Shown here: positions 12,001-61,749 of the stretch, piece after piece
Layout of the letters: each line of letters opens with the position of its first letter
How positions within the stretch are numbered: position 1 is the first letter of the stretch
From: Yuukianura sp. NJ FZ-2021
Lineage: Eukaryota
Direction: 5' to 3'
NCBI GenBank assembly: GCA_046563655.1
Contig: CM102286.1
Location: 8,370,001 to 8,434,000, forward strand
Length of the DNA: 64,000 nucleotides
Made by a program: the position numbers and the translations under genes
Notes under the pieces: generated by a model
Told to the model about the DNA's origin: nothing
The model's input: only the letters and a program-made list of their open reading frames with translations
Database searches by the model: none

Positions 12001-15000
12001 TTTTACAGAAAACTAATTTGAAAACAAGAAAAAAGTTGGTGCATAAATCACAGTTTCTAAAGTTCAAGTGAGTGTAAAGATCATAGCAAATTATAACGAA
12101 TGCGGTATTTTTACTTTTTGAAGCTGTTGAAATTTTTTGGTACTTGGTAATTCATGGTCTAACAAAAGTTGAGATGATTACATCAAAAGATTGAAATTCA
12201 GCGGCGTGAACGTACGTAACACGACAATTCTGAACGGCAAATATTGTACTGGGATAGCCATACTGCGGTTATCTAAAGAATATTTAGGTTAGGCTTTGCT
12301 GTTATATTTAAGCCAGGATTTAGAATTTGTCGGTTGACAAGCGCGCGTCCAGAAAATACCGGGAATTGGAATAGCAAAGGTTGCCAATGCACAATTTGGG
12401 AAGCTAAGCTCTTGCGTCTGAAGTCTGAACAGACAAAATGAGAGTTTTACTTACATTCAATATTAAAGTAAGCCGCAGCTCGTAAATAAGTGGCCGAGGA
12501 AACGGCGGAAGGTTCTTGATTGGTTTCTGGGCTGCCGCTGCCAACTCCCAGCAGTTCGTGATCCACAATGCAAACAACACTTTTATTGTGGTCTGTTCTT
12601 GAGACATTGGGGAGTAGTAGGGTGCTGCGAGTTAGGTAGACTTTGTCATCTTCCAAGTACTCCGTAGATAGGGAACTTCGATTCGTAACATTTTCTGAAC
12701 TGAGGAACCATGTTATCTTGGGCGGTGGATTTCCACCCTCCACGACACATTGGATCGAGATGTTATCTTTTTCTCTGTAGGTGACTCGAGTGGATGGGGT
12801 TGAGGACGGCGACAACCGACGACCATCAAATTCTAAATGGACTGCTCGGGGTGGTGCTGGAAGGAAAAAATAAGTTGCAATTATAGATCAAAGGCGGGAG
12901 GGAAATTCAAATTCAAAATAGAACCAAATCCTCTAAATCGTTTCCGTCCTTGTCGCTTTTCCCCTCCACTTTCTCCTACTCAGAGATGTAAATGATGCTC
13001 ATCTCCTTTTGAAAGGCAGATTGAAAGTCATGGTTGCAACAATCAGCTCGTGCGGTGGGGTGCATGTTGTTTACTTTTGGGGTTTAAGAAGAAATTTTAG
13101 GGTTGAGTAAACGCAGCACTTCAAATGTTGAAGGCTTCAACTTGAAGCTTCTTTTCACGCTATTCTTGCACCGTTATCGATACGACATTGCATTCTTAAT
13201 GCTAAGGAAATATTTATGATGAAAACAGGAAAGTCGGTAGGTGCGATAGGGTCAACAAACACTTGTCGGTTTAGCAAACGCTTTGAATCATTACTTAAAT
13301 TGAACTGTCGGGTTTCTTAGCTTATGAATTCAGAAACACCAGACTTAACCTGATACACAGGGACGGTCGCTATTCTGATATTTTTAGTTTTATATAAGTT
13401 TCGGTTCATAAGTTGCCGTGTAGTGGAGTCCTGCAATTGACGCAAACCCCCCTCCTACTTCTCTATTCAAATCTTCAAAGCTTCAATAAAGAAAGCGCAA
13501 GTGAAAGTGTTGGTTTAAAAGACGCGGAAACGAGAGAAAGCGGAGAAAGTCCAATATTTGTATTGTCACTCACCCATGACAACCACCCAAATGGGTTTCG
13601 AGATGTGTTCCTTCCCGTCAAACTTAACTTCATGACACTGCCAAATCCCATTGTCTTCTGGCAAAACGTTGTTTATTGTGAGGCGACCCTCAATGGCTCG
13701 ATTCAACGTCGGCCCCTGAATAGCATACCGCCCATTGTCCGTCCTTATCGGCTTACTGTTAAGCAACCAAGTGATTCGGCCATACGTATTGTTCAGGTCG
13801 CATTTGAGTTTCAGCTCTTGTCCAGGTTTAACTTTCATTTGGGGAACTAGTGTAGGTTCGTCCTGGAGTTCCTTGTCTGTCACCTTGTCACTCTGACCTC
13901 CTCTGAGTTGTGACCCTGAAGGGGTCATTGAGGCTGAAGGGCTCCCATCTACCATTGATGAGTCACTTGGCTCTTCGCCTTCGTCACTTTCACTGTTTCC
14001 TGAAGACAGCGGTGACAAGAAGGGGGTTGACGGATGGTTTCGGTGGTGGCGCAAGGAATGAGAGCACAGCACGATGTGACCTGGAACGGAAACAAACGGA
14101 AACGGACCAATTACCATCACGACAACTTTCACGGGTTGTTTCCTTAAAACATTAGGTTAGGTTAACCTTTCTTACAGAAACGCATTCAAATGACTTCCAA
14201 CTTTCACTGACCATTTCCGCACGCATTTACATCATTTTAGTTTAAAAGTTGCATGTCTCCTAAAAAATTTCCCTCACTTTCTGATGAACGCAGCTCATAA
14301 TAAAACGTTACGGGACATGTAGATTTTGCAAACAGAGGAGTGTTTAATGAAGAACGAGGAACATTTTAATTAAAGCTTTCCTCATTCCTACTCCTGGCAA
14401 CAACTCCAAGGACAACAATAGTCACAAAAACTTCCTCCAGAATTAATTAAAAGTGTAATTTGTTAATAAGAGCACAGGAGAAAACGTGAGGACGTATCCA
14501 GGAAGGTTGTCTCCTAGGGTGGTAACCATGCTTCAGGCTTCACTACACCAGAAAAGACTAAAGTGAAAGTATAAAATGAAGTTTAAATTGCGCCAATGCC
14601 TATTTGGCTTTCCTCCTTTTGCCTTCTGTATACCACGCCTTCTGGCAGCGGGAAAATTCGAATTTTTAAAATTGGATCCGACATGGAATAGACGGAATAA
14701 AACTTTGTTCCATCACCTGATTATAACTCCCTTCCAACCCTTCATCTCTCTCGTAATAACTTTCCGGTTTCTCATCAGTATTAAAAGTGATTATTTTTAG
14801 GCATTGAGGCTCGAAGGGGCTTTAGAACTAACTTGGGTAGGCCGCAGGAGGCCTTTGGTTAGGTTGTGGAAGTGAAAGCTAGTGGTAGCACAGCAGCCCG
14901 TTCGTTAGAACTTTCCCCTCCTAGAGCTTTCCCGCCAAAAAAAAAGATGAAAAGTCATCAGAGTAGAAATAATCTAATCGGACTCTTGGTTTTTTTCTGA

Positions 15001-23558: not shown

Positions 23559-23925
23559 GCCCAGTGCGTCCATTGCAGGTTAAAATTGCGCTAAACTGAG
23601 TTTAGTTAAACTCAGTTTAGTTTTTTAACTGACGGTTAACTTTTGTTTGTTCAGTCAACCAACTTTTCAAAAAGTTAAACTCCGTTTAGTAAAACTCCGG
23701 TTAACGTGAGAATAGGAAATTGGATTACTAAGCTGCACAATTATTGTGCAAGTGGTCTGATTGGCTGAAACAAGAGCACCGCGAAAGTTGAACAGTTTGT
23801 TTACAAATTTCAAACTAAAATTAGATTCTAAACTGAGCGAAACTTGTGATCTCCTCTCTCCTCTTTACCAAATTGCATAGGCAGATTCTAACTAACTATT
23901 CTAGTTTCTGATTGATTAGTAATTA

Positions 23926-24880
23926 ATGGAGTTTCAGAAACGAAAGAGAGGGCCTAACTTTTCAACTAAAGACAGGGAGATATTGATTGATATAGTTTTG
24001 TCAAAGTTCAAAGAAATTATCGAGTGCACAAAAACAGACTCCGTTACGACAAAGCAAAAATCCGAAGCATGGAGTGAGATCTCCCTTCAATTCAATTCTG
24101 TGGCCAGTGTAAGTCGTACAACGGATAACTTGAAGACTTTGTACGAGAATTTGAAAAAGAAAACCAAGAAAACTGCTGCCAGTGACCAGGTCAAGCGTTA
24201 CAAAACTGGAGGTGGAACAGATGAAACTGAAACTGAACTAGATTCCATTGATGAAAAACTTTTGGCGATTCTTGGGCCAAAGGTAACCCCCCTCAACAAT
24301 CCTTTCGACTCGGACGCTGTTTACAACGGTGAAGCTCTTGATACAGGTAAACTAGTGAATTTGTAACGTTACAATGTTAAATTATATCACTTATTCAATG
24401 TGTTTGAAAAGTTTAGTTCTAAACATTATTTTTGTCTTTCAATTTGCAGATACTCCGGTAGTTGATAACATCGAAATCGTGGAGGTATTGGGACAAGACT
24501 CTCATCAAGCAGACAGCTTCCCCCTGACATCGATTACTGCAATGGCTGAGGATAAGACGAACTTCACCACAAATCAACGTGTACTTTACAGTACTGACGC
24601 TCATCCTTCTACATCCAGTTCAGTGGTCCAAAACAACACGCCGAACCTAAGCTCAGCTGCTACGATGTTATGCAGTAACTGCTGGAAAGGTAGACGTCGC
24701 CCTATCCTTAAAATAGGAACACTGACGGAAAAGAAGGTTGATGCCACAACTAACGTAGGGGAACTAGCTCTTACCAAAAAACTATATTATGAGCGCCTAC
24801 TTGAAATGGCTGAAGTGGAGCACAAAGCAAAACTTCGTATGTTGGAAGCGAAAACTGAATTTTATTTGAAAAAGTTGTAA
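23926..24880 (+). CDS. Harbinger-associated Myb/SANT-like DNA-binding protein (MSANTD3-like), 2 exons, ~283 aa
   Basis: Exons 23926-24346 and 24450-24880 join in frame (phase-1 GT-AG). N-terminal KRGPNFSTKDREILI...W.EI...FN...RT...LK..Y.NLKK...KTGGG motif is typical of Harbinger Myb-like proteins, followed by a C-terminal coiled-coil. No stops seen. Confidence 0.88.
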
Positions 24881-25609: not shown

Positions 25610-26695
25610 CATAGAGTAACCATGACGATTCGATTTTTTTTCTTTTAACTAGAGTGGACATAAGGCATTTTTTCAACAAAATTTTTGAAACAAATTAAAA
25701 GAGGTTAAAAGAGGTAAAAAACCGCTTTCATCCGAAGTTTAAGCAAGGTTCACACCAAAAATGAAATTTAGATTTTCAGTCTTCAAAATTTCTAAAATTA
25801 TGAATAAAATTTCGAAAAGCAGGGGTTTTGAGACAAAACCGCCCATATCTGTCACGATACAACTGGTGACTAGTAGTATGCCCAGAAGGGGTGACAGCAA
25901 CCCAACAATTCGTCCTCCTGCTAAAATTGCTTTCGAAAAAGTTAAATTAAAGTTACTATTTCCTAATTCTAATTACTAATACTTAACGTTGTCAACCTAC
26001 AAACTCTTCAGCAAGGGGACATCTTCGGAGAATTGAGGATGATCAGCATGGATGAACACACTTTTGAGTGTTCACACGCGCTTACTTTGCTTCGCTTGGT
26101 CATTAGACAATACTGTAAAAGTAGGTTTCATTACATAGCCAAACAGGAAACCACTAAGCTAAACCCAACTACTACAGTTAGTAGCCTTATCTTAGAAACT
26201 GCTCGGATTGGCGCTTCTCATTTCACTCCTCCCACGGTTACCGTAAAACTTCGAGTAATGTGCAAAACTCTTACATTGAGTTGAGTTTTGACAATTTCTC
26301 TTCTCGCCTTCCCTCCACTAGTTGGAAGCTGGCGGTATAAGAGGAGGGAGAAAGAGGGATAACGTGGTTTCTAAGATAGGGCCATTACGTATTCCTAACA
26401 CTTGTAACAATACTAATTTTCAGAGGTCAGTAATGTTAGATCCAGAGTATTTCCGACTCGCGAATTTAAACTCTCTTGTGAAATAAAATCTCACTTAATT
26501 CTAAATAGTTTTATGTAGTTAATGGTAATGGTTAAATGCTACCTGCAATTCATCGTTTGTGTGAACCTGGCTTAAACTTGAGATGAAAACGGTTTTTTTT
26601 TCGCTTTGAAAATGTTTCAAAAATTTTGTTGAAAAAATGCCTTATGTCCACTCTAGTTAAAAGAAAAAAAATCGAATCGTCATGGTTACTCTATG
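25610..26695. mobile_element. P-superfamily-like non-autonomous DNA transposon inserted in the Harbinger nuclease
   Basis: Termini CATAGAG...CTCTATG with ~80-bp near-perfect TIRs, imperfect to ~160 bp. Perfect 8-bp TSD CGTAAAAT at 25602-25609 and 26696-26703. Internal plus-strand peptide SHALTLLRLVIRQYCKSRFHYIAK resembles the C-terminus of THAP9/P transposases. Confidence 0.8.
26175..26389. mobile_element. Tc1/mariner-type MITE (copy 1), nested in the P-like element
   Basis: TA flanks. TIRs CAGT...GCCTTATCTTAGAAAC / GTTTCTAAGATAGGGCCATTACG. The interior is homologous, in reverse orientation, to 57788-58002. Confidence 0.8.
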
Positions 26696-28689
26696 CGTAA
26701 AATCGTTTCATGTTTTGTCTTAGTTCGTCTAGCGTTGCTGGGAATTTGACGTATTTCTTGGAAAGCCTTGCCAATATTGGAACTACTATTTTAATTATGG
26801 AGCATGCGGTAGATTTTCCACCTCCAAACATGTCACCAATTACGAGCTGAAATATTCCGGTGGCAAGAAAATGAAGAGTAATGAGCAGTTGGTTTATTTG
26901 CGTTACGCTATATTGTTGCGATCAAGATCATATTGAAGAAGATGTTCAATCTGTTAAGAATTTAAGATTCAATTTTGGATGTTTTTGCTGCAATTTTTGA
27001 TGAATCAATTTTGATGATATCTTACTAACAATACTTAAGTTATAAATAGCTGACCTCACAAATCACTTTTAGTTGTCGCTTTTGTAAGTCGGAACCGTTC
27101 CCTAAATTCATCATCATCGTACTGTTCGAATAGATGTTTTGTTTTGCCAGAACATAGTAGGTCAGGGAGGGAGTGTTTGGATGTTGTCCAGTAATTCCAG
27201 CTCATCATCCGAACTGTCATGCCGGGTTAGCATGATACTGGAATAACTGTAGTTGAGAAACATGTATTATAAGTTCCACCGTTAGTTATTATTTACCTAA
27301 TAATAAATTATTTACTTTGCTTACGATTTCTGTGTATTTTAAAGCTGGTCAGTTTAACCCACTTTTTTAATCTCCTGCTAACTCACTACCCGAGGAAATT
27401 CGTCCAGTTAAATTTAAACTCCGTTTAAGGAATTTAAACGCCGGTTAAACTTTAACCGGCGTTGGCTGAACCCAAAAAATTTAACCGGAGTTTAAATCCG
27501 AGTTTAAACTCAGTTTAAATTTAACTTGCAATGGACGAACCGGGCATTAATATCGGATCAGACGATCATTTTCACATAGTATTAGACGCAGGATCGCGAC
27601 AAACTTTTGATGTCAAAGGTGAACGCGAGGTTCATATACAACCAGCATAGGCTCTCAACCGATTCTGAAAATAAATTATCCAAAAAATTTTGATAATTAA
27701 AAAAAATTGACATGAGTTTCCTTTCCCAACGAAAAAATAAGATTATCCCGCGGTCTTAGGTTAGCCACCGCGGTGGATTTGAACCACGGCCAGGCGATGA
27801 AGGTTACAGTTAAATTTTTTCCTCAATTTTGCAGTGAGCACAAGTGCTAATTTTTTTTTTTTGCCACTTTAGTGATCTGTCATGAGGTTTAGTTATCTTC
27901 GACTTTTGAATTTTTAATAATTTTTTATGTTTTATAACAACTTGCATATCAGGCAAAGCTGGAGTTCGATCTTATCTAGGTCAAACTTTTTTTTCGCGTT
28001 GAGAGACGAAATTAGTGTCAAATTTTCTCTTTAATTACAATAGATTTTTTGTGAGTAGTAGTCCCATAATTTTTTGGTAAGTTTAAAGCCTCTGCGCTGC
28101 AAACTTGGTAACCTCAGTCTTTGTTCGCGACCGATAGTGCAGGGAGGCACGCGTAGTACCAGTGCGCAGTGTTCCGTAAAAAGTGCGACTTTTAACTTTG
28201 TGCTGTGCTGTTTTTGCTTTAAATTACCTTTTTGTTCTTTGCTTGAATTGCTTAGAATGCAAATAGCGCTGTACATGTACAAATACATGGTAGGATAATT
28301 ATTCAATTACGAAATCATTCTGATTTTAATCTCAGTTTTACTTAAAAGAAGTCTGTTTTAGTTATAGTATTCATTAATTATGATTAAAAAAAACACAACC
28401 AAAAACTAAAAACAGCAGAAAGCAAGAAAACCCGTGTTTTCTATATTTACTGTAAAAGCAACTTCTTTAAAGCATCTCGGAGCACTGCCACAGTACATGA
28501 ACTCGAAAATAATGATAATTTCATTTATGACGACCATTTGTGGAGGGAAATATAACCTTCAGCCCAATTTGAACAAATCTGTGTAATTTTTTGATAACTT
28601 TTGCCATTTTTGATGAAAAAATTGACATATTTTGACATATTTCAGGAAAAAAGTCCTAACAAAGTTTTAACGGTCGAAAAAGTTTTTAA

Positions 28690-28937: not shown

Positions 28938-30207
28938 TAAAAGTCCTCAAAGTGCTAAAATTGCTAAAGAAAAAGTTTTTACGTACTTATTTGATCTCTG
29001 ATTATAATACATATGAACCTGAGTTGTTAATTACACTGTTGCATTATGAACTTGCCGAAGCATAAATTGAGTTGAACGGCACACACTGCCACTTGATTTG
29101 CTATGGTATTTCAAGAATCCATTCATGATCATGTCACGCACGATCATCATATCTTTTGCCTCTTCTTTGAACACTATAGCTGGATGGGTAAACAGTTTTG
29201 ATGTCACAACCGCTCACCTGTGCATAGCTTGGATCGCCGAGCCAAGCGCGCCGAGCGTATAGAAACTTTAGCGATTCGATCCAAGTCAGTAAATTTTTGT
29301 CGCGATCCGAACCGAGCCGAGCCAAAAAGGAAAGTCAGCGATCCGCGATCCGAGCCGAGTCAGAAATTTTTTTCGCGATCCGAATCGAGCCGAGCCAAGA
29401 AGGAAAGTCAGCGATCCACGATCCGAGCAAGCAAATTTTGTTAGCGAGCCGAAATAGCCAAAAAAACAGCTGCTAGGATCGCTGACTCGCTAAACTCCAC
29501 TGTTGGTTCGGCGATCCAATGACTAAAAAGCATGAGGGGAGCCCTATTGTGTTATAATCCCAGTTTACAATCGATAAACATTACAAAACGACAACTCGAG
29601 AGATACATAACATAAATAGACAATTAATTATACATACAAAGTATTAGTTATTTATTACTATAAATTGTTACAAATATACAAACAATAATCAATAGAATAA
29701 TTAATAGTGTATTAACCTAAATAACATTGTATTGTTAACATTACAGTGTCTGATGTAAATTAATTTATTAATCCAATTTGTAATCATACGCGATATACTG
29801 TGTTCTGAAATGAAGGCTATTTCTAAAGGTTGCTCGCTATTTGGAGAGAAATAACTTTTATTCAGAAATAAAGTTTTGGGTTGAATGAACTCTGGTTCGT
29901 TCGCAGAACGAACAGAGTTCCGTTATGTTTGAAAATTGGAATTGTAGTGAGTTTTTGAGGTCACGGCCGAGTCCTTTTTATAGGGACTCGACACGCGCCG
30001 AGTTAATTACATGCAGATCTAATGTAAACTACATTGTGCAAAGAACAAAAGACTGAAGACTAAAATACAGTTTGAAAATCTATTTTTAAATACAAAACTA
30101 GTTGTAACTGGATTACATGTGCAAAAACTAGGATTCGCAGAAAGAACAAAAGATTAATAATTAACATAATCTGGAGAATGAGTTTGCTTCACAACATTTC
30201 CCTACCG

Positions 30208-30745
30208 TTAGTTGGGAAACTCTCCTGAGTTTCGAGAAACGGGAAGTAGTGGACAATCCTTACGTTTGTGGCCGATTTGACTGCAGATGAAGCAGGGTTT
30301 TGGGCGATGTCGCTGTGGGTATTCCGGGGTCATTGAACGGAGAGTGGCTCGTAGGTCAAGGGCACGGAAGATGCAACTTTTCGCGTTGTGACCACGCCTG
30401 CAACACCAGTCGCAACGGTTTGTGTTTTCTTCGGGATGTGAAATGTCCAGTAGAAATGGCATCGTAGGAGATCCGGAAGTTGAAGATGAAGTGGAGATGG
30501 TTGGAGAAGGGGCACTCTGTGTCATCTGGAGTTCCCGCATCTGACCTGTAAAAATAAAAGAAAAATATATTAGAGATGAAATGTACATAATAAAAATTGG
30601 AGTTAGGGAAGGGAATGGAGAGTGCGGACGTGAACTTAAGTGACCTGTAAAGGTCAAAAGTTGCCTTACGTAAGACTTCTTCGTCAATTTGACGAAGATG
30701 CACATCTTCTGCGTCTACGTCCATTGTAGTAGGTCCACTCTCCAT
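30208..30745 (-). CDS. Spliced double CCHC zinc-knuckle protein inside the LTR element (~130-137 aa)
   Basis: Exon 30745 (or 30724)-30670, 124-nt intron C|GTAAGG...TTTTCTTTTATTTTTACAG|GT, exon 30545-30208. The join is in frame (EEVL-R-QMRELQ). Encodes CDWCCRRGHNAKSC and CFICSQIGHKRKDC. The stop abuts the PPT. Confidence 0.7.
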
Positions 30746-31127
30746 AACGGTCTGGTGGTTTCCTTGTACGTCCAGTTCTTCTTGGAGGAGTCGGTTCGTT
30801 GACCTTTGACTTGGCAGGAGCAAGAAGAGACGGGTCTTCTTTTTCAGATGATGAAGATGAAACTGGAGTGACAACTGCTTCGTCATCCTCAGGCTCTTTT
30901 ATAGCCTTGGGGTCATCGGCACTGTCAATGTCACTTTGTGTTTTTGCACGAGCACTGTGACTACGTGACTTCGAATGTCCAGAATGTCCAGGCAATGACC
31001 TGTAACTGGAACTATGAGGATTTGAATTCTGACTGTGTGAACTTTTGTCACTAATTTGACTAACAGCAGTAGACTTGGATTCTCTGCTGGAAATTTGCTT
31101 ATCCTTTTTGTTTACCTCAGTAAACAC
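30684..31127 (-). pseudogene. Low-complexity ORF ending in a Gypsy integrase C-terminal-like motif (pol remnant)
   Basis: Ser/Lys-rich 147 codons containing PRRTGRTRKPPDRYGEW, matching the RRSxRxxxxPxRY motif common at Gypsy Pol C-termini. No ATG at the ORF start and no catalytic core. Confidence 0.6.
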
Positions 31128-33530
31128 TGTGGGGTGAGACGAATCGGCGGACTTAGCCGATTTCGCGCAGTTTTAATTAATTTTGCAACTTTTTGTTTAA
31201 AACAAGTTTATTTTTCGCAAAAAGACAATGACACACACCAAGTTACTCTACAGTTCAATTTTGGCTTTTCGCCGACTGTTTTTTGAGTTTGAATTTGCTC
31301 GGTTGAGGTTTTCCTCACCTTTTGAGCAAACTCTATGGCGGCGCATCATCGAATCATGATTTTGGTTTTGATTTAAACAGTCAGATGCAATGTGATAATA
31401 ATTTTGATAAATTACGTGTACTGTACATTTGAGGCAACGTTATCTCAAATTTAAGTCTCAGAGGTAATTTTTATTTTTAGTTACATTACTTGGAATTGCG
31501 TAACTGAGGTTTATTTTCCTCAGCTTTTGGCAAAACTCAGAGGTAATTTTGTTGGCAATTATTACTTGAATTTGCAATTAACCTTTGAATTTTCCCGCAA
31601 TTTTCAGCAAATCTCAGAGGTCAAATTTAATAATTTTGTTTTTGACGTGTATTTGTGAAAATGGGCTTAATTCAATTGTTATTGACAAATTTCAGAGGTA
31701 ATTTAATACCAGTTGTATAATTTTTTAATAAATTGTCTGGGTTTGTTTACCCTAGTCAGTTAAATTAGCAATGCCTTTATGTTCCTCCATATTATTTTGG
31801 ACCCTGCATTTTGAGTCCTCAAATGGAGTTTGGAGTTTTAGGTCATTTGCTTATTTACAGGTGATTTGAATTTCACCTCAGAATTTGAACTAAACTTGAT
31901 TTTTAAAAGTCCGTTGTTGTTTTGTTGTGTTTTGAGTTTTTAGAAACTCGAATTTTTGTATGGAGGTCAATCGGGGTCAACACAATGCTGAAAGCATTGG
32001 CTACCCTCTCCTCCTTAGTTTGGCATAAATTTTGAAAATTTGACCTCATCTGGGTCAAAAGAATTATTTTTGATTTGACCTTTATCAAGGTCAACATGAT
32101 TTTTCAAAATTTTGTCGAAGTTTGACCTCATTGGGGTCAAATAAATGTTTGTCATGTGATTTGACCTTTTCAAGGTCAACAAGTTTTTGTAAAAATAATT
32201 TTTTATTCATTATAAACATTTTATAAAATGAGAAGAATTGAACATTTTTTTGTTATAGTATGAATAACTCATAGAGATCTTTTCCTAAGGGTAGGCTTCC
32301 CAAGATTGAGCAGGTTATTATTTTTATTATTTGTTATTATTTTTATTTATTGTTATTATATTATTTTTTATTTATTTGACCTTACGTGACCTCTATGGGG
32401 TCAACGTAATTTCTTATGTAAAAACGATTTTTAGTGATAAGAATCACTAGATGAAGGTTTGCAGCATTTTTGCTGTCCAAACCACTATTGATGCATGTGC
32501 ATCCCACCTCAGGTCAACAGGTCAACGTTCCTCTGGCCTCTAAAAGAAGCTCTGAACGGACCACCGCCATGAGGTCAAAACCCGTGGTCGACGCCGAAGC
32601 GGACCCGGTGGGTTTTGTGAAAGCATTTGTTGAGGTGGGGCACGAGGTCATCGATATCTCGTCCACCATTGTTCTGAAATGAAGGCTATTTCTAAAGGTT
32701 GCTCGCTATTTGGAGAGAAATAACTTTTATTCAGAAATAAAGTTTTGGGTTGAATGAACTCTGGTTCGTTCGCAGAACGAACAGAGTTCCGTTATGTTTG
32801 AAAATTGGAATTGTAGTGAGTTTTTGAGGTCACGGCCGAGTCCTTTTTATAGGGACTCGACACGCGCCGAGTTAATTACATGCAGATCTAATGTAAACTA
32901 CATTGTGCAAAGAACAAAAGACTGAAGACTAAAATACAGTTTGAAAATCTATTTTTAAATACAAAACTAGTTGTAACTGGATTACATGTGCAAAAACTAG
33001 GATTCGCAGAAAGAACAAAAGATTAATAATTAACATAATCTGGAGAATGAGTTTGCTTCACAACAACTGGTACTGGTGTGCTCGAATAAAGAACAGCAAA
33101 GACTCTTCAAGTCAACATGAGATCGATGGATATCATATGTTGTTACCCATATCCCTAATTGCAAAGAAGCGACCCACTCTTTTCCCTCCTTCTCTGAGCA
33201 AAGAGCGAAACTTCTTTATCGACACGTTTTTCATTGCAAACATTATTTGAATTATTTGAATTTAACTGTTTAATTAGTAATTAGGCAATCCGTTGCGCAA
33301 TAACAGAATGACAATGTTAACTCTTGTATCAGGTGTACCCACGGAATGTAACCACCGCTGCTGTTATACTTTCGTATCTACCGAGAGTAGTTAATTGGCG
33401 GTTACAATCACATATTATCGCGTGGTTGGGGAGGGGAAAGCACGGTGTCGGTTACACTGGGGGGGGGGGTGATAGGTAATTTATTTGTTTAAATAAATTT
33501 AATGATAGTATCTAATTAAACTAATTCAAC

Positions 33531-33772
<242 letters not shown>

Positions 33773-34300
33773 TTCAGTTTGCTAGTATTCTGTTTATTGT
33801 TGTATTAAGCTGTACTGTAATAATATAAATGCAATAATAACGATATATTGTTAGTGTTATAGTTTAACGTTAGTGAAATTATAATATGATTCATAACAAA
33901 TAATAAATAAAATAATTATGTGAATTTGGTTAGGCATACACTATCAAAGGGTATGCTGTAAAAATTCAGAATTTGATGTAATTACAAACCTTATCGCCCC
34001 TCGCACTGCTGAAAGTTAGTTGGATCGCTCCTTCAGCGATCCAGTGCCTGGCTTTTGTTGGCTCGGCGAGCCGATCCAAAAACTTTTTGGCTCGATCCGC
34101 GATGCGAGCCGAGCCACACAATGAAGTCCGCGATCCGAGCCGACCCGAACCATTCAAACACCGCGATCCGATCCGAGCCTGGTTCGCTGGCTCGCCTCGG
34201 CTGGCTTCTGCGATCCAGCCTGGATCGTTATTTTGGCTCGTGCACAGCTGTGCATCTGCCTTCGTAACCTACGAACGAAGTTGTTCGGTTATTCTATGTG

Positions 34301-36850: not shown

Positions 36851-37586
36851 TATTAGGGATTATTAAGAGAGTAGCGTTATCTGGGTCAAACTAAACTAGC
36901 GTGGCGTAGCGTTATCTTAGCATTTTCATCCTAATATGGGAGGCTTTGGATTAAATCTCTGAGTTAAACCAAAAGTCATTTCCGTCGAACATGAACGATG
37001 AATGACGTAGCGGAAGTGGCAACTGCCAAGCATGAGGATCAACCACAATTATTGGCGAAGGTCGCTATGGTCATTGATCGTCATTTTGTAAGAATAATTT
37101 TCCTTAAAGCTTATTCCTAAGGCTATTAATTATGCCTTGGGGGAGGAGTTTGGGAGTCATTGAATTTGCGACCTTCTCCGAATTTTGAAAGGCGTATTCT
37201 CAAAGCAAAAATGGTGCAGTTGATTGGGCCAGAAAGTCTTTAACCCGTTAACCCAGTTTTTGAGTTGTTCCGTTTTCTGTTTGAATGAAACGCGACGCTC
37301 TCAATCTACTAGATTTGATTGCAGTAGATTCTCTCACGCCTGTCTCCGTAGTACACAGTTGGTCCATGGTTAGCTTAAATATAATATCCTATTCCTAATG
37401 AGTTTTCTAACATTGGCTTATGTGTTTCAGTAAACTACACTTGTCCATACAACCTGGAATTACTGGAAATACTGCAATACCCATTGGAACCTTTCGGTGT
37501 TAAAGCGCATCGATGGCCGAGTAATTTAACTTTCCTTATCCAATTATTTCGGTTCTTATTGAACAGCGTGATATGGTACGAAGGAA

Positions 37587-40500
37587 ATGAAAGGGAGAAT
37601 AATGTCCGGATCTGCCAGTGGTCGTCCTCAAGGGAAACTCCCAATGTCTCAAAACAACATCACGTCGCTATTTTCGAAGCTGCATGGGGCCTTCGCCGAG
37701 GCCATGTCGCCTCCTAAGTTAACAATCGACAAGAGAACGTTAGAAAAATCTTGGAAGTTGATGGACAAAGTAGTGAAACTGTGCCAGCACCCGAAGATGA
37801 ATTTGAAAAATTCACCACCGTTCATCTTGGACATTTTACCAGACACTTATCAACATCTTCGGATTATATACTCCAAGTATGAAGACAAATTGGTTTCACT
37901 CAACAACAATGAATACTTTCGGTTATTCATAGAAAACCAAATGAATAAGTGCAAGCAAGCCATCAAGCTCTTCAAGGAAGGAAAAGACAAGATGTTCGAT
38001 GAAACGTCACATTATAGAAGAAACCTAACAAAGCTCAGTCTAGTATTCAGTCATATGCTTAGTGAACTTAAGGTATAAGAAGTATTTGTTATTACGTAGC
38101 GATCGAAACCATACCCCGCTAACAAACAGCGTTAATCGAATTCTTCGCAATATTCGCAGGCTCTTTTTCCCAGTGGAATTTTCAACGGGGATCAATTTCG
38201 AATTACAAAGTCTGACGCGGCAGAGTTTTGGAGAAATTCGTTTGGGAACAGGTACTATTCTTTTGTTAGTGTTTCTGCTTGGCAATTCCAATGAAATTGT
38301 CGTTTTAATGATTCTTATTAGGGTCACTGATTCTTCCTTTGACACTTTTAGTGATATTCTTGGAATTATTAATAATGTGTTGTATGCTTACTTTTCAGAA
38401 CCACGGTTTCGTGGAAATGTTTTCGTCAAACTCTAAGTGCTATTCACTCAATTAGTACTGGACTGGAAGCGATGGCTCTGAAGTCAACAATTGACCTTAC
38501 CTGCAATGATTACATTTCCAATTTTGAATTTGATGTTTTTACGAGGTACGATATCAATTTTCCATGAGAGTGAATACTACATGCCTACTTAATTAATGTT
38601 AAGACCGCAGTTGGAATGAGCAAAAATTGTCTTTCCGTTCCAGATTGTTCCAGCCTTGGTCTTCGTTATTGCGAAACTGGCAAATACTTGCAGTCACGCA
38701 TCCAGGATATGTTGCCTTTCTCACGTACGATGAAGTCAAAGCAAGACTGCAAAAATACATCAACAAACCAGGAAGGTAATCTTTTACAGCGTAAAATCTT
38801 CACAGTTTCACTTTCACTAAAAGTAATATATTTGTCGAATATTTGTCGATTCTTTCTGTTGTCTAACAGCTACGTCTTTCGTCTGAGCTGCACTCGATTA
38901 GGGCAGTGGGCTATTGGTTACGTCACAAGTGATGGGAACATTTTACAAACAATTCCTCAGAACAAGTCATTGTGCCAAGCACTGCTAGATGGTTACCGAG
39001 AAGGGTTGTAAGTGCACAGTTTTTCCATGTACAATATTAATTTTATATTTTCTCAGTTAGTTTGCATTTAATTCATGAGTCTTAATTGAGTAATCGAATC
39101 GCTTTCGCGAAATATTTGTACGCTGAACGAGAGCAACAGCGAGGACATGCATTAATACAGAAAGCTTTGATTAATGTTATCTTTCATTTCTTGATTTCAC
39201 AGTTATTTGTTTCCGGACGGGAGGAATGTAAATCCCGATCTATCATCTGCCGTACAATCTGCTCCCGAAGATCACGTCACTGTGACCCAGGAACAGTATG
39301 AACTTTACTGCGAAATGGGATCAACCTTCCAATTATGTAAAATTTGCGCTGAAAATGACAAGGATATTCGAATTGAGCCTTGCGGCCATCTGCTTTGTAC
39401 ACCGTGTTTAACATCATGGCAGGTACATTTCTGGATAATTACCTCTCTTAGTTGGTGGAATACCGAATACTTTTCCTAAAAGCTTTTTCGTTTGGTTTTA
39501 GGAGTCAGAGGGACAGGGATGTCCATTCTGCAGAGCTGAGATCAAAGGAACGGAGTCAATAGTTGTAGATCCATTTGATCCTAGACGGCAGCACAAAGCC
39601 GGATCCACTGGAAACCTCGTTGAATTGGATGAGGATGATGAGGTAGATCAACATCAACGTTCGTCCATTATTCCGTCCTTTTGATGTGTGCCGTATAGTT
39701 ATACCACGTAGATATGTTAACTTTGTCTCAAACCTGTGTTTGTTTGCCTTTGTTGCTACTGCATCCTGCATCCGAGGACATTCGAATTTTTGCAAGGCTT
39801 TATAGTGCAAGTGCTGTTGCATGCAATTCGGGCAGCTAAAATGGACGTCGTATTTGTCGAATGGAGAATTCGGAGTATATCAAAATTCCTTCCCCTGTTA
39901 CAGTCGCTTGACGTTGTGCCTGATTCAGTAGTAGCGTTTCCGTTTAATCAGTCTCTTTAGTACCTTAATCTGAAGATTCAGAAACCAAAAGGACGTTCCT
40001 TGTTCCAAATAGTCGAATGCATTACTCCCAGTCCCCCCTTAATACGAAACAGTTTTGAATCATGATTTGAATGAGTAAATCCTTCTTTACGATATGTTAT
40101 AGCTAAAGTGAAATTTGGTCTCAATGAACTGCTTTGCGATTACGTAAATGTTTCTCCCTTATAGTTATACCAAGTAAAGAAAGTTTCTTATTATTACAAT
40201 TATTTACTCAGTGGGAAAAATAATTAAGCTTATTGCATGGCTCGGCTTGAATTGGTAGGTAGGTTACTTAAGTTTAAGTACGGGCAATTTGGCTCCAGTC
40301 TCGACGAAGCGTGGCGAACGACTCAACTCTAAGCTTTTTGCAAATCATTTATTTAATCATTCCTCGTGCACAACCTGGAGCCCTTAATACGGCAAGCACC
40401 CGATCTCGTTTAGTTTATTTTTAAGTGCAATTTATGAATCGCTGAGTTCGCTAATATAGTCAGGGCGTTAGGATTTAACATTTTTCCAAGTGGAAAGTAG

Positions 40501-42529
40501 TACTCGTGGAGCTAGTTTTGTTTAAATTGATACTTTACACCTTGTGCTTTGAGGATGTAAGGAACAGGTATATGCTTAAAGATCCAAAGATCCTATCGTT
40601 TGCTTCAGATTAACTTTCTTTAAATGTTCGTCTTCTGTTATGTAATCTTGAGTCTTGAGTCAATTTGAATGCTGGGAATAATTCAAATTTGTAAGCATCT
40701 AAGTGCGCTTTGCCTTGATTTTATTCTATTTATGGAACTCAAATTTATAATTAACATGGCCGTTATTTGTACCCAAAATTATGTAGGACGGTGGGAATTG
40801 GAACGTGACGAATAATTCTCTTCAAGCCTTGGCACTTTCACCAAGATCCGAAACTCCGGAATTTAGGGTAAGCTCGGAGGATTTTCATGTTGTCAACAGT
40901 ATACTCCGGGGATTTCAGCCTATTTAATTAATTTAATGCCCCTGAGTTTACTTTCTATCTTGAAATTTTTTAGTCTGTTAATGTTTCTAGGCCGAGGTCA
41001 AAATCTCGTTGCTTTCCATTTAGTTTCTACTTCATGATGTTTGTTGTCATTGTGTCTTTTGTTTAGGGTACACCAGGGACAACTCCAAGAACTTCTCCAC
41101 GGATATCACGAAAAGACTGTGAAATGCTTCTTTCTGAAGAGCATCGTAGGAGCACGCGGCAGAGTAATCCAGTGCCACAAGTATCCAATACTTTAATCCA
41201 ACCAGAGGACGGTACAACACGGTCCTCTAGACCCGCATCTCCGATGCTTGCACATACAGAAAGTGGCTCATCTTCAAGCGCTGGTCCTCCTGGAGGAGAC
41301 GCAATCCCGCCTCCACTGCCACCAAGGAAAGGTTCCCCTTCGCGTGGCTCTCCTTCTAGTACTTCTTCTGACGTTTCCTTCCCAAGGTGAACTTCACAAA
41401 AATATGATTCTCCTCAATATTAATATTTTGCATTTCTGTGACACGTACGCTCTGTCTCTCTTTTTCTAGTATGCCATCCGAACCTCCAGCCGTTGCTCCA
41501 AGACCTCCGTGCACAATAACTTCCAGCTCACAAGCTCTGAATGGAGGTCACCGAGGTAACAGCACCGAAGGAATCGAGGAGCGTCCTCGACAATCTAGAG
41601 ATTCGACTGAGCATAGTAAGTTACTATGGGAAGTCTAAATCCACTACAAGAAAAAACATACTAGATGTGAGTCACTGGATATGCAATTTAATAAATATTT
41701 CGTTATGCATTCATCAGTTGAAAATGGCTACGATGTTCCTGCTCGCGTTTCCCGCGGCATAACTCCCGTCGCACAAAATCCACATCAGCCAAGATCTCAA
41801 TCCAGAAAAGTTGTATTACCTGAGAGGAATGTTTCGGGTCCATTCCGAATGATGTCTTCAGCAAATAAGTCTGTCGTGTCACAAATTCATCAAAGTCAAA
41901 TTCGACATCAGTCATGTCCCTCACTCAACAATGCTCCCTCTTACAATAACAGTGGAGCTCACTGCCTACCAATATCATGTCCTCCTTCGGCCACAGTCTC
42001 TCCAAATTCTAGTCAGCAACTCCTGTTGCCCGCCAGCAGTGCGTCCAAGTGCGGCAGCGGCCAGGGTCCTGCGTCAAGTACAAAAAATCAAGCTCTGCTC
42101 CTTCAACCCGTCTCCAGGCATTCACTTCATCCACAGTTGGGTGTCAAAGAAAAAGTCCCGTCCTCGAGCTTCTCTACACGCGTTATCGTAAGTAGGACAC
42201 CGACGAATATCATACCGTGCAACAACAAATCTGGTGACGGCAAGTTGGAAGCATCTGCTTCCTCGAACTACGAAAATACTGGCCCAGGCAGAAGCAATAA
42301 GCCAGAAGTCACCAGAGAACCAAGTGGAGCGGTGTCATCTGATGAGAACTTCCAATTATATTCAGATACTGAAATTACGCCATATGAAAATTTAAATATG
42401 GATTACATTACTCGTCTCACGAGTGAAGGATACTCGCAGGATCTTGTGATTCGAGCATTGGGCATAAGTAGAAATGATATTGACATGGCGAGAGATATTT
42501 TACATGAGTTTGCTACTCGACCGTCGTAG
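37587..42529 (+). CDS. Cbl: E3 ubiquitin-protein ligase Cbl (TKB, RING, Pro-rich, UBA)
   Basis: In-frame GT-AG exons: 37587-38072, 38160-38251, 38399-38545, 38644-38775, 38870-39007, 39203-39422, 39502-39642, 40787-40867, 41067-41386, 41470-41615, 41718-42529. Hallmarks are [112 protein letters not shown] and a C-terminal UBA ([26 protein letters not shown]). Confidence 0.97.
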
Positions 42530-58002: not shown

Positions 58003-59000
58003 TATACTTCCATGCTAGTTTCTGAAACATTTCTTCCTTTCGCAGAATCAATTTGAGACATTGAATGGCGGTGGCGTTGCAAATGGTACGGAAGGAACAG
58101 ACGCCGCCAAACGACATTAACTCACATGTTGTACCGAAGCAGGTCTATTCGTAAGCTCAATTTCGTAAGCAGTCAATTCGTAATCGTAAGCGTTCCAATT
58201 CATAAGCATCCAAATTCATAAACTCGGAAAATTCGTAAGCAGTGTCAGTTCCCAACCACCCCCATTCGTAAGCATCCAATCCGTAAACATATTTAATTCG
58301 TAAGCGTAGTCAAGCAACTGAAAATGAGCAGAAGTACATAATTCAAAACGTTCAAACCCATGACTGAGAAATTGAAAAGCTGCAAATCGCCATTAACAAA
58401 ACCAACCTCGTGTTACATGGACTTCAACGATATGCAAACGAAACTACAGAATCACTTCTCTCCGGACTCGAAACGATGTTCTCCAATTGTCTCCAAACTA
58501 CCAATTCGAGTTTTGTCTCTGAAGCATTTAGACTTGGCAAATCAACACCTCAAAATCCAAACAAACCTGTCAAAATTATCTTTACATCGCTTGAAGCTAG
58601 AAACATGATCTGGAAGAATCGTGACAAAATCAAAACTACACATCCGGGCATCAAAATCACACAAGATCTGCCTTTCAGTGCTCGAAAAAAACTTGCAATG
58701 AAATACCGAACTCAAAATGCTGGTAACAATCAAACAACTACTGCTACATCTCAAGCCCCATCATACTCTTCTGTTGCTCAAACTTCCGGATTCGGACGTA
58801 GCAGCATTACGTTACGTTCTCCAATTTGACTATCCGAACCTCGCCGTTCCTCTCCAGACCGTGCTCACCGACTCAAACCTCAGCTTCCGAAAAATCAAAT
58901 CAACCAATCACCTTGTATTTTAAAGAATCGACTAAGTATAGCAGCACTGAATGTCTGTGGCTACAATTCTAAAGCAGACTCAATAAAAATCCTACTCGAC

Positions 59001-59612
59001 TTGTACAACTTTGACGTTCTATGTATAACTGAAACTCATTTAAAGGAAAATAACCCTCCAAGACCCATCGACGGATATCACTTTATTCATAAAGTTCGAG
59101 ATTGGCAAGGAAAAGGGGGAGTCGGAATTCTAATTCGTTCATCACTTTCTTTTAGTGAAAAAATCATCAATCTACTTGAAAATAGAAACGTTGAAGTAAT
59201 TACTGCAAAAATTCAACTGAACCATAATAAATCCGTCCTCATCAGCAGCGTCTACAGAATCCCCTCCTACAATCCAAGTGTTGTTCAATGTGATCTTGAG
59301 ACTATTATGTCATTGTTTAATGAACTGAATACTACGAAAAAAGCGTCATTCGTCCTAGGTGATTTTAATCTTAACTCTACTTACGTCCCGCAAAAATGCA
59401 ATCATGCGGTGAAACAGATCAACTCAGTTTTTAAACAATTGGTGAAAGTGCCTACACGCGGTGACTCAATCCTAGACTTAATTTTCTGTAACAACCCAGA
59501 TCTAGCACTTGACCTCAAAGTATTTGACCCAGGTATTTCTGATCATTGTGTTACAACTATAACTGAATCTGTCGAAACCCAAAGTCAAGAAAACAAAATT
59601 CCAATTTCATGA
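59001..59612 (+). pseudogene. LINE ORF2 apurinic-like endonuclease domain
   Basis: DVLCITETHL, GGVGILI, VYRIP, LGDFN, LDLIF and ISDH motifs; ends at a premature TGA. Confidence 0.88.
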
Positions 59613-59850
59613 CTACAAAACATTTGACTTCGAAGAATACGGACTGAAGTCAATCTACACAACATTTGACAATTTTGGAAAAGATGTAGACATTCTCTTC
59701 CTTGATTTCATGTCAAAAATCAGTGAAAACTTCCAAAGTACAATCAAATTACGTACAGTGTCCTTTACGCCAAAATCACTACCACTCTCACTTTCTGATA
59801 CTACAAAAATGCTGATTACATAAAAAAGGAAGTTACAAAGAAATGGACCG

Positions 59851-61749
59851 TTGTCCATCACTCAACGCATTCAACTCAAACAAATCACGAAATCACTCAA
59901 GTCTGCCATCATTAAGGACAGAAGAGACTCACTTAATACTGAAATTAAGAAAATTGGACCATTCAAAGCTATTTCCAAGATTCGTCCCAACTCAAAAGAT
60001 GTAAATCAAAAATTTCCCTTTTCCGCTGAAGAAATTAACAAATATTACACTTCAATTACGACACCTCAGCACATATCTACTGTTCTGCCTTCAAAACCAA
60101 TTCACATCAATACACCCAGTGAAGAGTTCAGTTTTTCCAAAATTAATTCTACATTGTTTGGCAAAACTTGGAAGAAACTCAAAAACAAAACTGATAAATG
60201 CAAGGATCAGTTTGGAATATCGAATTGGATTTTGAATCACAGCATTGGATCTCAGAATATTCAACATCAAATAATACACATAATCAATGAGTCATTGCAA
60301 ACTGGACATTTTCCTACATGTCTTAAGCATTCAACAGTGATACCGTTACCAAAAGCACCAAAACCACTACATCCAAGTGAAACACGTCCAATCTCTCTTC
60401 AGCCAGTGATTGCCAAATTGTGCGAAAGATTTGCCCTCGACCAACTAAAATCCTTTTTCAACCGAAACAGTTTATTAAACAGTGCACAGTTTGGGTTTCG
60501 GAACCATCACTCTACCACGATGGCACAAATCGCTCTGACCGATCTTATTTATGCTCATCTAAATCGGGGCGAAGTGTGCTTAGTGCTTTCTCTGGATTTA
60601 AGAAAAGCTTTCGACACAGTTGACAAGGACATACTTTGTGAAAAACTACGTTGGTACAACGTAGCATCTCCATGGTTTGAGTCATATTTGAATGGCAGAT
60701 CTCAAAGTGTTAAAACTAACGGTGAAAGTTCAATCTCCAGAGAAACAATTTTATCAGTACCACAAGGTTCTGTATTAGGTCCCTTCCTGTTCTCTATTAT
60801 GATCAATGATCTCCTATACGCTATTAGACATGGATCTCCAGTGCTTTTTGCGGACGACAATAATATCGTACTGGGAGGTCGATTGGAACATTTGGAACAA
60901 CTAATAGTCAACGCAAAGGAAACAATTGCTTCAGTAAATCGATGGACTGCAGAAAATCATATGGGTCTGAATCTGGACAAAACCAAAGTACTTGTTATTG
61001 GTAAACCAAGTCAAGTGAAACGAATTGGCAAAATTCAACTCAACATAGGTGACACAAGAATTCTGAGCGTTGACTCATTCAAAACCCTTGGACTGGAACT
61101 AGACAATACACTTTCTTGGTCAAACCACATAATCAACATAACAAAAAAATGTAACCGAATTCTGTGGTCGCTCTATCCAATTCAGCATCTCCTGTCGCAT
61201 CACAAGAGAAGACTAATGATCGTTTCATACATCTTCCCAATACTACGTTACCTAATTGTCTTGTGGTCAAAATCAGTGCGTCACCAATTTAATAATATAA
61301 GCAAAATATTTCGAAAATGTGTCCGCTTCATTTTTAAACTGAAGAAACGGGAATGTGTAGACGCATTAATCCACCAACTAAAGTGGCTTCTACCTACCCA
61401 ATTAAGTGCACTGGATCACTTACTCATCTATTCATCGATGATTCAGCACAACATTCCTTACTTCAAAGTCATCTCCACTGAAATCGCTAAGTATTCAGAA
61501 AACACAACCTCGACAAGATCAGGAGTGTACATTGTACACAACCGCGCGTATCACCCTAAATCTTTCGTTTCCTCAGTGTCTAGAATTCTGAACTCCATAC
61601 ATGAAGAACACAGAGAAGCGGTCAAAAACCCGGGACCAAGAACTAGAAAAATTCTGACTACTTTCTTTTTAAATCAGCAACTGCGATCAAGTTTGGATTC
61701 AAATCCGTATGAAGATACTGACCAGAGTTCCTCCGACTCTTCCTCTTAA
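59851..61749 (+). pseudogene. LINE ORF2 reverse transcriptase portion
   Basis: 632-codon open stretch with non-LTR RT motifs including FADD; out of frame with the endonuclease portion. Confidence 0.9.

Follow-up and report, generated by a model that had tools for sequence, protein, structure and literature searches.

The open reading frames (ORFs) that long terminal repeat (LTR) retrotransposons carry behind pol, here called ORF3s, are diverse, and unrelated genes have been gained in this slot repeatedly (PMC5718144); their expression typically runs through spliced messages (PMC5408684). In Cer1, a Ty3/Gypsy-type element of C. elegans, a spliced post-pol protein termed CERV is required for export of the unspliced genomic RNA (PMC10309623), and in the Ogre elements of legumes and EVADE of Arabidopsis functional introns are kept in the genomic copies and used for alternative messages (PMC12786077). 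Here we describe an LTR element on the minus strand of a 64,000-nt stretch of Yuukianura sp. NJ FZ-2021 (GenBank assembly GCA_046563655.1, contig CM102286.1, positions 8,370,001 to 8,434,000; hereafter the window), in which a small gene for a double zinc-knuckle protein, apparently split by an intron, lies between a remnant of pol and the 3′ LTR. The best explanation, and the one toward which we lean, is a non-autonomous derivative of a Ty3/Gypsy-order element with a spliced, post-pol ORF3 that resembles a nucleocapsid (NC).

The resemblance to Cer1 is one of organization. In both elements an extra, lineage-specific ORF lies behind pol, read from a spliced message in the case of CERV and from one predicted to be spliced here; unspliced RNA is the genome of Cer1 and would be that of the present element; and both products hold a Cys-rich, putative RNA-binding element and have no homologues beyond close relatives (PMC10309623). 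CERV, however, has 517 aa encoded by five exons, three of them common to gag, carries a C4-type loop, and has a demonstrated role in genomic RNA export (PMC10309623), whereas the present protein has a predicted 130 aa from two exons, carries NC-like CCHC knuckles and belongs to an apparently non-autonomous element; the two are likened by organization and not by sequence. The slot behind pol is identical to that of other ORF3-bearing LTR elements (PMC5718144; PMC5408684). The introns of Ogre and EVADE lie within or between gag and pol, where they modulate gag/pol in autonomous plant elements (PMC12786077), while the one described here interrupts a distinct ORF at the 3′ end, in a genome of animal type.

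With the nucleocapsids of gag (zf-CCHC, PF00098) the present protein shares two CX2CX4HX4C knuckles, whose spacing and flanks align with those of the gag-type protein P0060 and, weakly, with solved NC/Gag chains. It differs from them in that the knuckles lie behind an integrase tail, are accompanied by no capsid domain, and have their own ATG and an intron. Non-autonomous LTR elements of the LARD/TRIM type consist of LTRs, a primer binding site (PBS), a polypurine tract (PPT) and an internal region without reverse transcriptase (RT); the present element differs from these in retaining an intact small coding gene. A limited search of the open-access literature, in excerpt, found no description of an NC-type CCHC gene behind pol or of an intron splitting one. 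ORF3s and spliced accessory genes are already a known kind, as Cer1 CERV illustrates, and the present gene is unusual rather than unprecedented.

The split zinc-knuckle gene and its probable intron

ORF3 starts at an ATG at 30724, in the context ACAATGG, which lies within the last 13 codons of the pol-tail ORF but in a different frame. Exon 1 contributes 55 nt of coding sequence up to a C/GTAAGG donor, the intron beginning at 30669, and exon 2 resumes after the acceptor TTTTTCTTTTATTTTTACAG/G, with the intron end at 30546. The intervening 124 nt have a GC content of 34%, a CTAAT motif 24 nt ahead of the acceptor, a 20-nt pyrimidine tract and a CAG end. Joining 30670 to 30545 preserves the frame and yields a coding sequence of 393 nt, or 130 aa plus a stop. 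Acidic residues make up 7 of the first 19, a Ser/Thr-rich linker follows, and the two CX2CX4HX4C knuckles occupy residues 63–76 and 103–116, approximately 26 residues apart. The stop codon (30208–30210) ends 1 nt ahead of the PPT-like purine run. The first-pass annotation, which was made from the letters alone, had described two minus-strand ORFs joined in frame by a 124-nt intron into a product of this length, with two knuckles and a stop at the PPT, and every part of that description was reproduced.

Exon 2 scores 22.8 bits against Pfam zf-CCHC (PF00098), above the gathering cut-off of 20.8, and the score is due to knuckle 2; knuckle 1 has the CX2CX4HX4C motif and no separate PF00098 score. 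The knuckle ORF sits between pol and the 3′ LTR. Nucleocapsids of gag follow the capsid and precede protease and pol, and these knuckles instead follow the integrase tail and precede the PPT. The claim that the gene occupies the env/ORF3 slot is borne out by its two ends, the ATG lying in the end of the pol tail and the stop next to the PPT. We are highly confident that a post-pol ORF3 exists. Its 130-aa product would, judging by the knuckles, be a zinc-dependent binder or chaperone of single-stranded nucleic acid of the NC kind.

The intron was assessed on contigs of four sequencing runs (X1–X4), which were aligned to positions 29500–33400 at 80% likeness. One sample is the source of X1, X2 and X4, whereas X3 belongs to another study and has another organism label; all are marked 'DNA?', and X2 and X4 are DNA because they hold contigs of 403 kb and 275 kb, respectively. 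Statements on contig differences refer to the best-supported variants (40 of 552) and to 12 of the 189 indels and 15 of the 43 joints. The family is multi-copy, with 88–274 aligned contigs per run whose likeness to the window ranges from above 99% to below 90%.

One joint, 30543 to 30668, skips 124 nt. A cut moved by +2 fits equally well, giving 30545 to 30670 with CT..AC on the plus strand, and this shifted joint removes exactly 30546–30669, or GT..AG on the minus strand. It is carried by one contig each in X1, X2 and X4 (depths 77.1, 85.5 and 26.5), with shorter sides of 49, 86 and 34 letters and two shared letters in all three, and those shared letters argue that the two sides abut. Contigs crossing from exon 1 into the intron without a break were found in X2, X3 and X4, and contigs that run from exon 2 into the last 25 nt of the intron in X2 and X3. 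The summed depths of the intron-holding bin are 1521.8, 1286.4 and 90.5 in X1, X2 and X4, compared with roughly 110–170, 137–233 and 20.6 for flank contigs that look single-copy; contig depths are not copy numbers, and these values correspond only roughly to about one copy without the intron and several with it. Other joints with short sides (24–33 letters) lie within the segment, at 30553 to 30665, 30570 to 30674 and 30595 to 30674, and we read them as copies with diverged intron interiors.

Splicing and then reverse transcription of the spliced RNA would produce just such a DNA copy, without exactly these 124 nt. The sister copy is therefore strong indirect evidence for that sequence of events, and it places the boundaries where the first-pass annotation had predicted them. 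We consider the intron very probably real. The accompanying proposal, that the gene would be expressed only from spliced RNA, which is a conjecture, while unspliced RNA would be packaged, fared less evenly. Intron-bearing contigs are far deeper than the intron-less one, in keeping with the copying of mostly unspliced RNA, but the intron-less DNA copy indicates that reverse transcription does not shut out spliced RNA altogether.

Two frames stay open across the intron, that of the ATG (30359–30898) and that of exon 2 (30211–30714), and all five stops fall in the third. We considered this openness as a sign of former coding and set it aside, since 1113 of 20,000 shuffled sequences (5.6%) did equally well and it is probably due to chance. 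The idea that the exon 1 frame carries on the ancestral pol C-terminus, which would make a fusion of integrase to knuckles, was likewise dropped: BLASTP against P0072 and P0073, the Gypsy-order proteins described below, gave just E ≥ 3.7.

The LTR element and its pol remnant

The element measures 3,265 bp, with an internal region of 2,473 nt. Its LTRs are direct repeats of 396 bp that are identical at 396 of 396 positions (29801–30196 and 32670–33065), start with TG and end with CA on the minus strand, and are flanked on both outer sides by ACTG, a short target-site duplication. A TGG-starting, PBS-like site lies 1 nt past the 5′ LTR and the purine run GGTAGGGAAA adjoins the 3′ LTR, positions that fit a minus-strand orientation of the element. 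The LTR has a TATAAAA 214 nt from its start. Just two matches to a 26-nt probe from the end of the LTR occur in the window, a count that none of 100 shuffles reached, and the probe revealed no third LTR copy in these 64 kb. A search for the primer tRNA of the PBS-like site found no tRNA gene in the window.

Contigs without the element were also observed. A joint from 29795 to 33071, which skips 3275 nt, is present in three of the four runs (X2, X3 and X4) with sides of up to 255 letters; a second, from 29796 to 33066, skips 3269 nt, the element plus 4, and occurs in X2 only, with a shorter side of 24 letters and the flag 'between: not known'. The two differ by 6 nt, which is a single repeat unit of a TACTGG tandem in the target site, and taken together these observations support a 4-bp duplication. 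Element-less sequences exist; they are either allelic or belong to paralogous flank copies (likeness ~95–98%). The insertion is very recent. No inverted repeats of 40 nt or more were found around it.

ORF 30687–31172, upstream of exon 1, spans 162 codons with no methionine. Pfam assigned it to no family, the sole match at E ≤ 1 being DUF1674 at 13.4 bits against a cut-off of 23.5, and a whole-length search for longer proteins returned no match. When residues 100–155 were used, three proteins among 31 candidates were retrieved, with library-wide E values of 0.022 to 0.48. In pairwise alignment, the motif PRRTGRTRKPPDRYGEW is identical at 17 of 17 consecutive residues to positions 1375–1391 of P0072 (1409 aa), and it is equally identical at 860–876 of P0073 (893 aa) and 293–309 of P0071 (327 aa). 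P0072 has the Pfam order aspartyl protease (weak), RVT_1, RNase H, Integrase_H2C2 and rve, and both it and the ORF have a long Ser-rich stretch ahead of the motif. The three proteins end 18–19 residues past a GEW tripeptide, and likeness to the window ceases directly after GEW. P0071 had no match in viral contigs. An exact 17-residue identity would be far beyond chance in any database. Because it is shared with the C-ends of proteins of the order protease (PR), RT, RNase H (RH), integrase (IN), the ORF is, by homology, the C-terminal tail of a Ty3/Gypsy-order pol, which agrees with the integrase-tail motif that had been claimed for it.

Everything else expected of gag and pol appears to be missing. 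Within the element no minus-strand ORF longer than 66 codons lies upstream of 31172; of eight stop-to-stop ORFs upstream of exon 1, six have no Pfam family at E ≤ 0.1 and the remaining two have sub-threshold matches (16.0 and 14.2 bits), far under the cut-offs. tblastn of the complete Gypsy polyprotein P0072 against the element matched the tail motif and nothing else, and the ORF and Pfam scans found no gag, protease, RT or capsid remnant in it. The pol order PR-RT-RH-IN is absent from this copy, which is without PR, RT, RH and the IN core. Since no long ORF or retroelement Pfam family lies upstream of 31172 and tblastn finds the tail alone, the element is, by its predicted coding content, a non-autonomous derivative and not an autonomous member of the Ty3/Gypsy group. 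The first-pass description of a young, RT-less LTR element agrees with the identical LTRs, the ACTG duplication and the three scans.

A second candidate intron lies in the minus-strand region 31127–31349, with the donor AAG/GTGAGG (GT at 31318–31317) and the acceptor CACCCCACAG/ (G at 31127). If its 192 nt were removed, the Met-less pol-tail ORF would gain an in-frame start, the ATG-ATG at 31349. Among the 15 of 43 joints listed, none matches this intron. A further donor-like site, CAC/GTAAGG, lies at 32385 in the leader.

The non-coding 5′ part of the element contains tandem-like duplications at 31457–31628 and 32027–32194, with units of ~80 nt that are 72–78% alike, and around 31833 and 32252 many contigs of the family have loose ends, breaking off or diverging there. 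These duplications and breaks suggest that the 5′ part is structurally variable among family copies.

Relatives, constraint and competing explanations

An exhaustive HMMER search of 1.84 billion representatives with the knuckle protein gave 68 matches at E ≤ 1e-3, one of them at ≤ 1e-10. We scanned 19 of the 68 with Pfam, chosen as the two best and those whose alignment spans both knuckles. CCHC-type families were present in 17 of the 19, gag-type domains in 3, and RT or integrase in none. Modules of the NC type gave the best alignments across two knuckles. The clearest is the NC of P0060, a protein with SCAN/capsid-CTD, CCHC and aspartyl protease domains, which is identical at 21 of 66 positions with one gap and equal knuckle spacing. 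Among PDB sequences there were 18 matches at E ≤ 1, all of them TUT4/7, retroviral NC, Lin28 or AIR2 knuckles, and the Gag entry 6rwg matched with E 0.036. The ESM Atlas returned generic CCHC clusters (best score 0.83), and metagenome contigs six loci, all with generic knuckles, the best 36% identical across both. A word-index search found no relatives of similar length, viral contigs held no relative of the knuckle protein, and an exact 24-nt pattern had no match in prokaryote genome contigs. An autonomous parent was sought in the protein library and in metagenome, viral and prokaryote contigs, and none was found. As far as such comparisons reach, the knuckle module is NC-like in architecture, while its likeness to gag nucleocapsids is generic and no orthologue can be identified. 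The HMM search that had been proposed for the spliced protein gave generic CCHC matches, and the structural model of the protein is of low confidence. ORF3 seems to have been acquired within this family and not to be an accessory gene of long standing, because likeness to the pol tails ends where ORF3 begins and no ORF3 relative accompanies those pols in the library.

Differences among the listed contig variants give hints of constraint on ORF3. Three of four variants in exon 2 are synonymous, and in the overlap (30687–30898) four of five are synonymous in the ATG frame compared with one of five in the pol frame; three of the overlap variants derive from a single contig. The only listed change in exon 1 outside the overlap, at 30672, is non-synonymous and common to all contigs, so that the window copy is the odd one there. 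A contig that is ~86% alike over 30343–30570 (exon 2 and the acceptor) differs by 33 substitutions and no gaps in 228 nt; another has three gaps. The synonymous lean and the gap-free diverged copy are hints, not a test. That the 130-aa protein matters for the element is a view we hold tentatively, as somewhat less than an even proposition.

Several observations weigh against the explanation we prefer. The synonymous and non-synonymous counts are tiny and come in part from one variant contig, and the identity of the LTRs means that selection cannot be read from the intactness of the ORF in this copy. There are 28 ATGs ahead of the ORF3 start in the full-length RNA, so that translation of ORF3 is predicted to need a message that is subgenomic or processed in some other way; upstream, 32385 and 31318 are candidate donor sites and 31127 a candidate acceptor. 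No relative past generic CCHC proteins emerged from the 1.84 billion representatives, the metagenome and viral contigs or the ESM Atlas, and the single-sequence AlphaFold model (mean pLDDT 43.6, pTM 0.22) is uninformative. ORF3 seems not to be conserved in the nearest pol clade and may be a recent capture. Finally, the three runs with the 124-nt joint are all from one sample, the joint carries the flag 'between: not known', and it is absent in X3.

Several of these observations would suit a passenger, that is, a knuckle module captured recently with its intron from a host gene or another retroelement, spliced by its own signals, useless to the element, and intact since the family is young. Likeness to the nearest Gypsy pol tails stops after GEW, where exon 1 begins, no relative of ORF3 is found in the library with those pols, the identical LTRs make intactness uninformative, and ORF3, with 28 ATGs ahead of it, is unlikely to be translated from full-length RNA. 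A host-type homologue was likewise not found, however, the HMMER library and the ESM Atlas yielding generic CCHC matches alone, and capture through an mRNA would normally have stripped the intron. The listed variants also lean toward synonymous change in exon 2 and the overlap, and the diverged copy retains its 228 nt without an indel. We regard a passenger as unlikely, though a serious possibility. It is very unlikely that the knuckles are the NC end of the parental gag, carried past the integrase tail when reverse transcription switched templates without homology. Such an origin would account for two knuckles with a spacer of ~26 residues, which is the NC architecture of Gypsy-type gag (P0060, 32% over 66 aa; 6rwg), and for the stop that closes the ORF, as would be expected were gag an ORF of its own. 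Yet gag lies upstream of pol, so that at least two to three non-homologous events would be needed and not one deletion; an ATG of its own in good context over the pol end and a canonical intron are unexpected within gag; and the element holds no gag capsid remnant. The first-pass annotation had named a rearranged gag as what would overturn its proposal, and we judge this improbable on the ground that a single deletion cannot put a gag NC behind an IN tail.

The intron itself could be doubted in another way, the 124 nt being an indel polymorphism (a small insertion, or a microhomology deletion via the shared GT) whose GT..AG ends arose by chance. The joint does have two letters of microhomology and the 'between: not known' flag, the short-sided joints fall in the same segment, and two of its three frames are stop-free, a property that the shuffles matched 1113 times in 20,000. 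Its ends nevertheless match to the base the GTAAGG donor and the pyrimidine-tract CAG acceptor that had been predicted from sequence alone, and its removal restores a single ORF from the ATG to the stop at the PPT. A random indel would have a very small chance of doing so, and we hold this account to be highly improbable.

For the explanation toward which we lean, that of a non-autonomous Gypsy-order derivative with a spliced ORF3, the events would have been as follows. A Gypsy-order element that already bore a small gene behind pol would have undergone one internal deletion, and a single deletion explains the order 5′ LTR, leader, IN tail, ORF3, PPT and 3′ LTR. What remained would be the LTRs, PBS and PPT together with ORF3 and the final ~160 codons of pol. 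The intron would be spliced in vivo, the templates for reverse transcription would be mostly unspliced, and an occasional spliced RNA would be copied back into the genome. The ORF3 product, made from a spliced and probably subgenomic message, would act on the element's own RNA in packaging, chaperoning or export, and an autonomous helper would supply Gag, PR, RT and IN. A bolder extension is that ORF3 is a private RNA-binding factor, either a packaging adaptor or chaperone or an export factor like Rev or CERV, which marks unspliced RNA for helper particles and so lets the RT-less element out-compete its helper, the intron being kept to separate the coding message from the genomic RNA; we think this rather unlikely. 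Helper hijacking or regulation, which the first-pass annotation had proposed, is purely conjectural.

Coordinates, genomic surroundings and significance

Table 1. Features of the LTR element, in window coordinates
Feature	Positions	Strand	Evidence or remark
5′ LTR, 396 bp, TG..CA	32670..33065	-	396/396 identical to 3′ LTR; TATAAAA 32851
PBS-like site TGG...	32651..32668	-	1 nt past 5′ LTR
Non-coding 5′ internal region, short internal duplications, without gag/PR/RT	31173..32650	-	ORF, Pfam, tblastn scans
Pol (integrase) C-terminal tail remnant, Met-less	30687..31172	-	motif PRRTGRTRKPPDRYGEW ~30732-30785
ORF3 exon 1, acidic 18 codons + 1 nt, ATG 30724-30722	30670..30724	-	overlaps pol-tail ORF end
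GT..AG intron, 124 nt, very probable	30546..30669	-	sequence signals; DNA joint in X1, X2, X4
ORF3 exon 2 (335 nt + stop 30208-30210), Ser/Thr linker, two knuckles; protein P0001	30208..30545	-	ORF, Pfam
CCHC knuckle 1	30373..30414	-	motif CX2CX4HX4C
CCHC knuckle 2	30253..30294	-	motif; zf-CCHC 22.8 bits
PPT-like purine run GGTAGGGAAA	30197..30206	-	adjoins 3′ LTR
3′ LTR, 396 bp	29801..30196	-	direct-repeat comparison
Target-site duplication ACTG	29797..29800; second copy 33066-33069	.	flanks; X2 contig joint 29796 to 33066

Just beyond the 3′ LTR, at 29291–29428, the window contains two 65-nt direct repeats that are 73 nt apart, and a long ATT/AAT-type trinucleotide microsatellite extends from 33459 to 33828, ~400 nt beyond the 5′ LTR. 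Contig depth at the insertion flanks is high and uneven, and the element therefore probably sits inside another repeat.

The window as a whole is eukaryotic and animal-like, with a Cbl N-terminal exon, Ig-domain exons and a LINE. Host genes account for the Cbl N-terminal domain exon, at 37572–38078 on the plus strand (E 5.5e-51) and with a likely 3′ exon of the same gene at 41639–42529 (plus), and for the Ig-domain exons at 12447–14156 (minus). The non-LTR retrotransposon occupies 58368–61749 (plus), where an Exo_endo_phos endonuclease ORF and an RVT_1 ORF lie in separate frames or segments; GC skew is strongly negative at 58–62 kb. An ORF for a Myb/SANT-like DNA-binding protein at 23923–24880 (plus; Myb_DNA-bind_5, E 1.7e-19) and a weak HTH_Tnp_4 fragment at 26691–26921 (minus) are probably remains of a DNA transposon of the PIF/Harbinger type.

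Genes behind pol are a recurrent route by which retrotransposons gain new abilities, among them env, export factors and enzymes. Were ORF3 a passenger, the element would be nothing out of the ordinary, a young and non-autonomous Gypsy derivative that has captured a fragment. An RNA binder of the NC type in the post-pol slot would be unusual, both for an intron that most copies keep and one has lost and, if true, for its retention by an element that discarded gag and RT. It would bear on how introns are retained through an RNA intermediate and on how helpers package non-autonomous elements, and the locus provides a natural 'intron reporter' for retrotransposition of this family.

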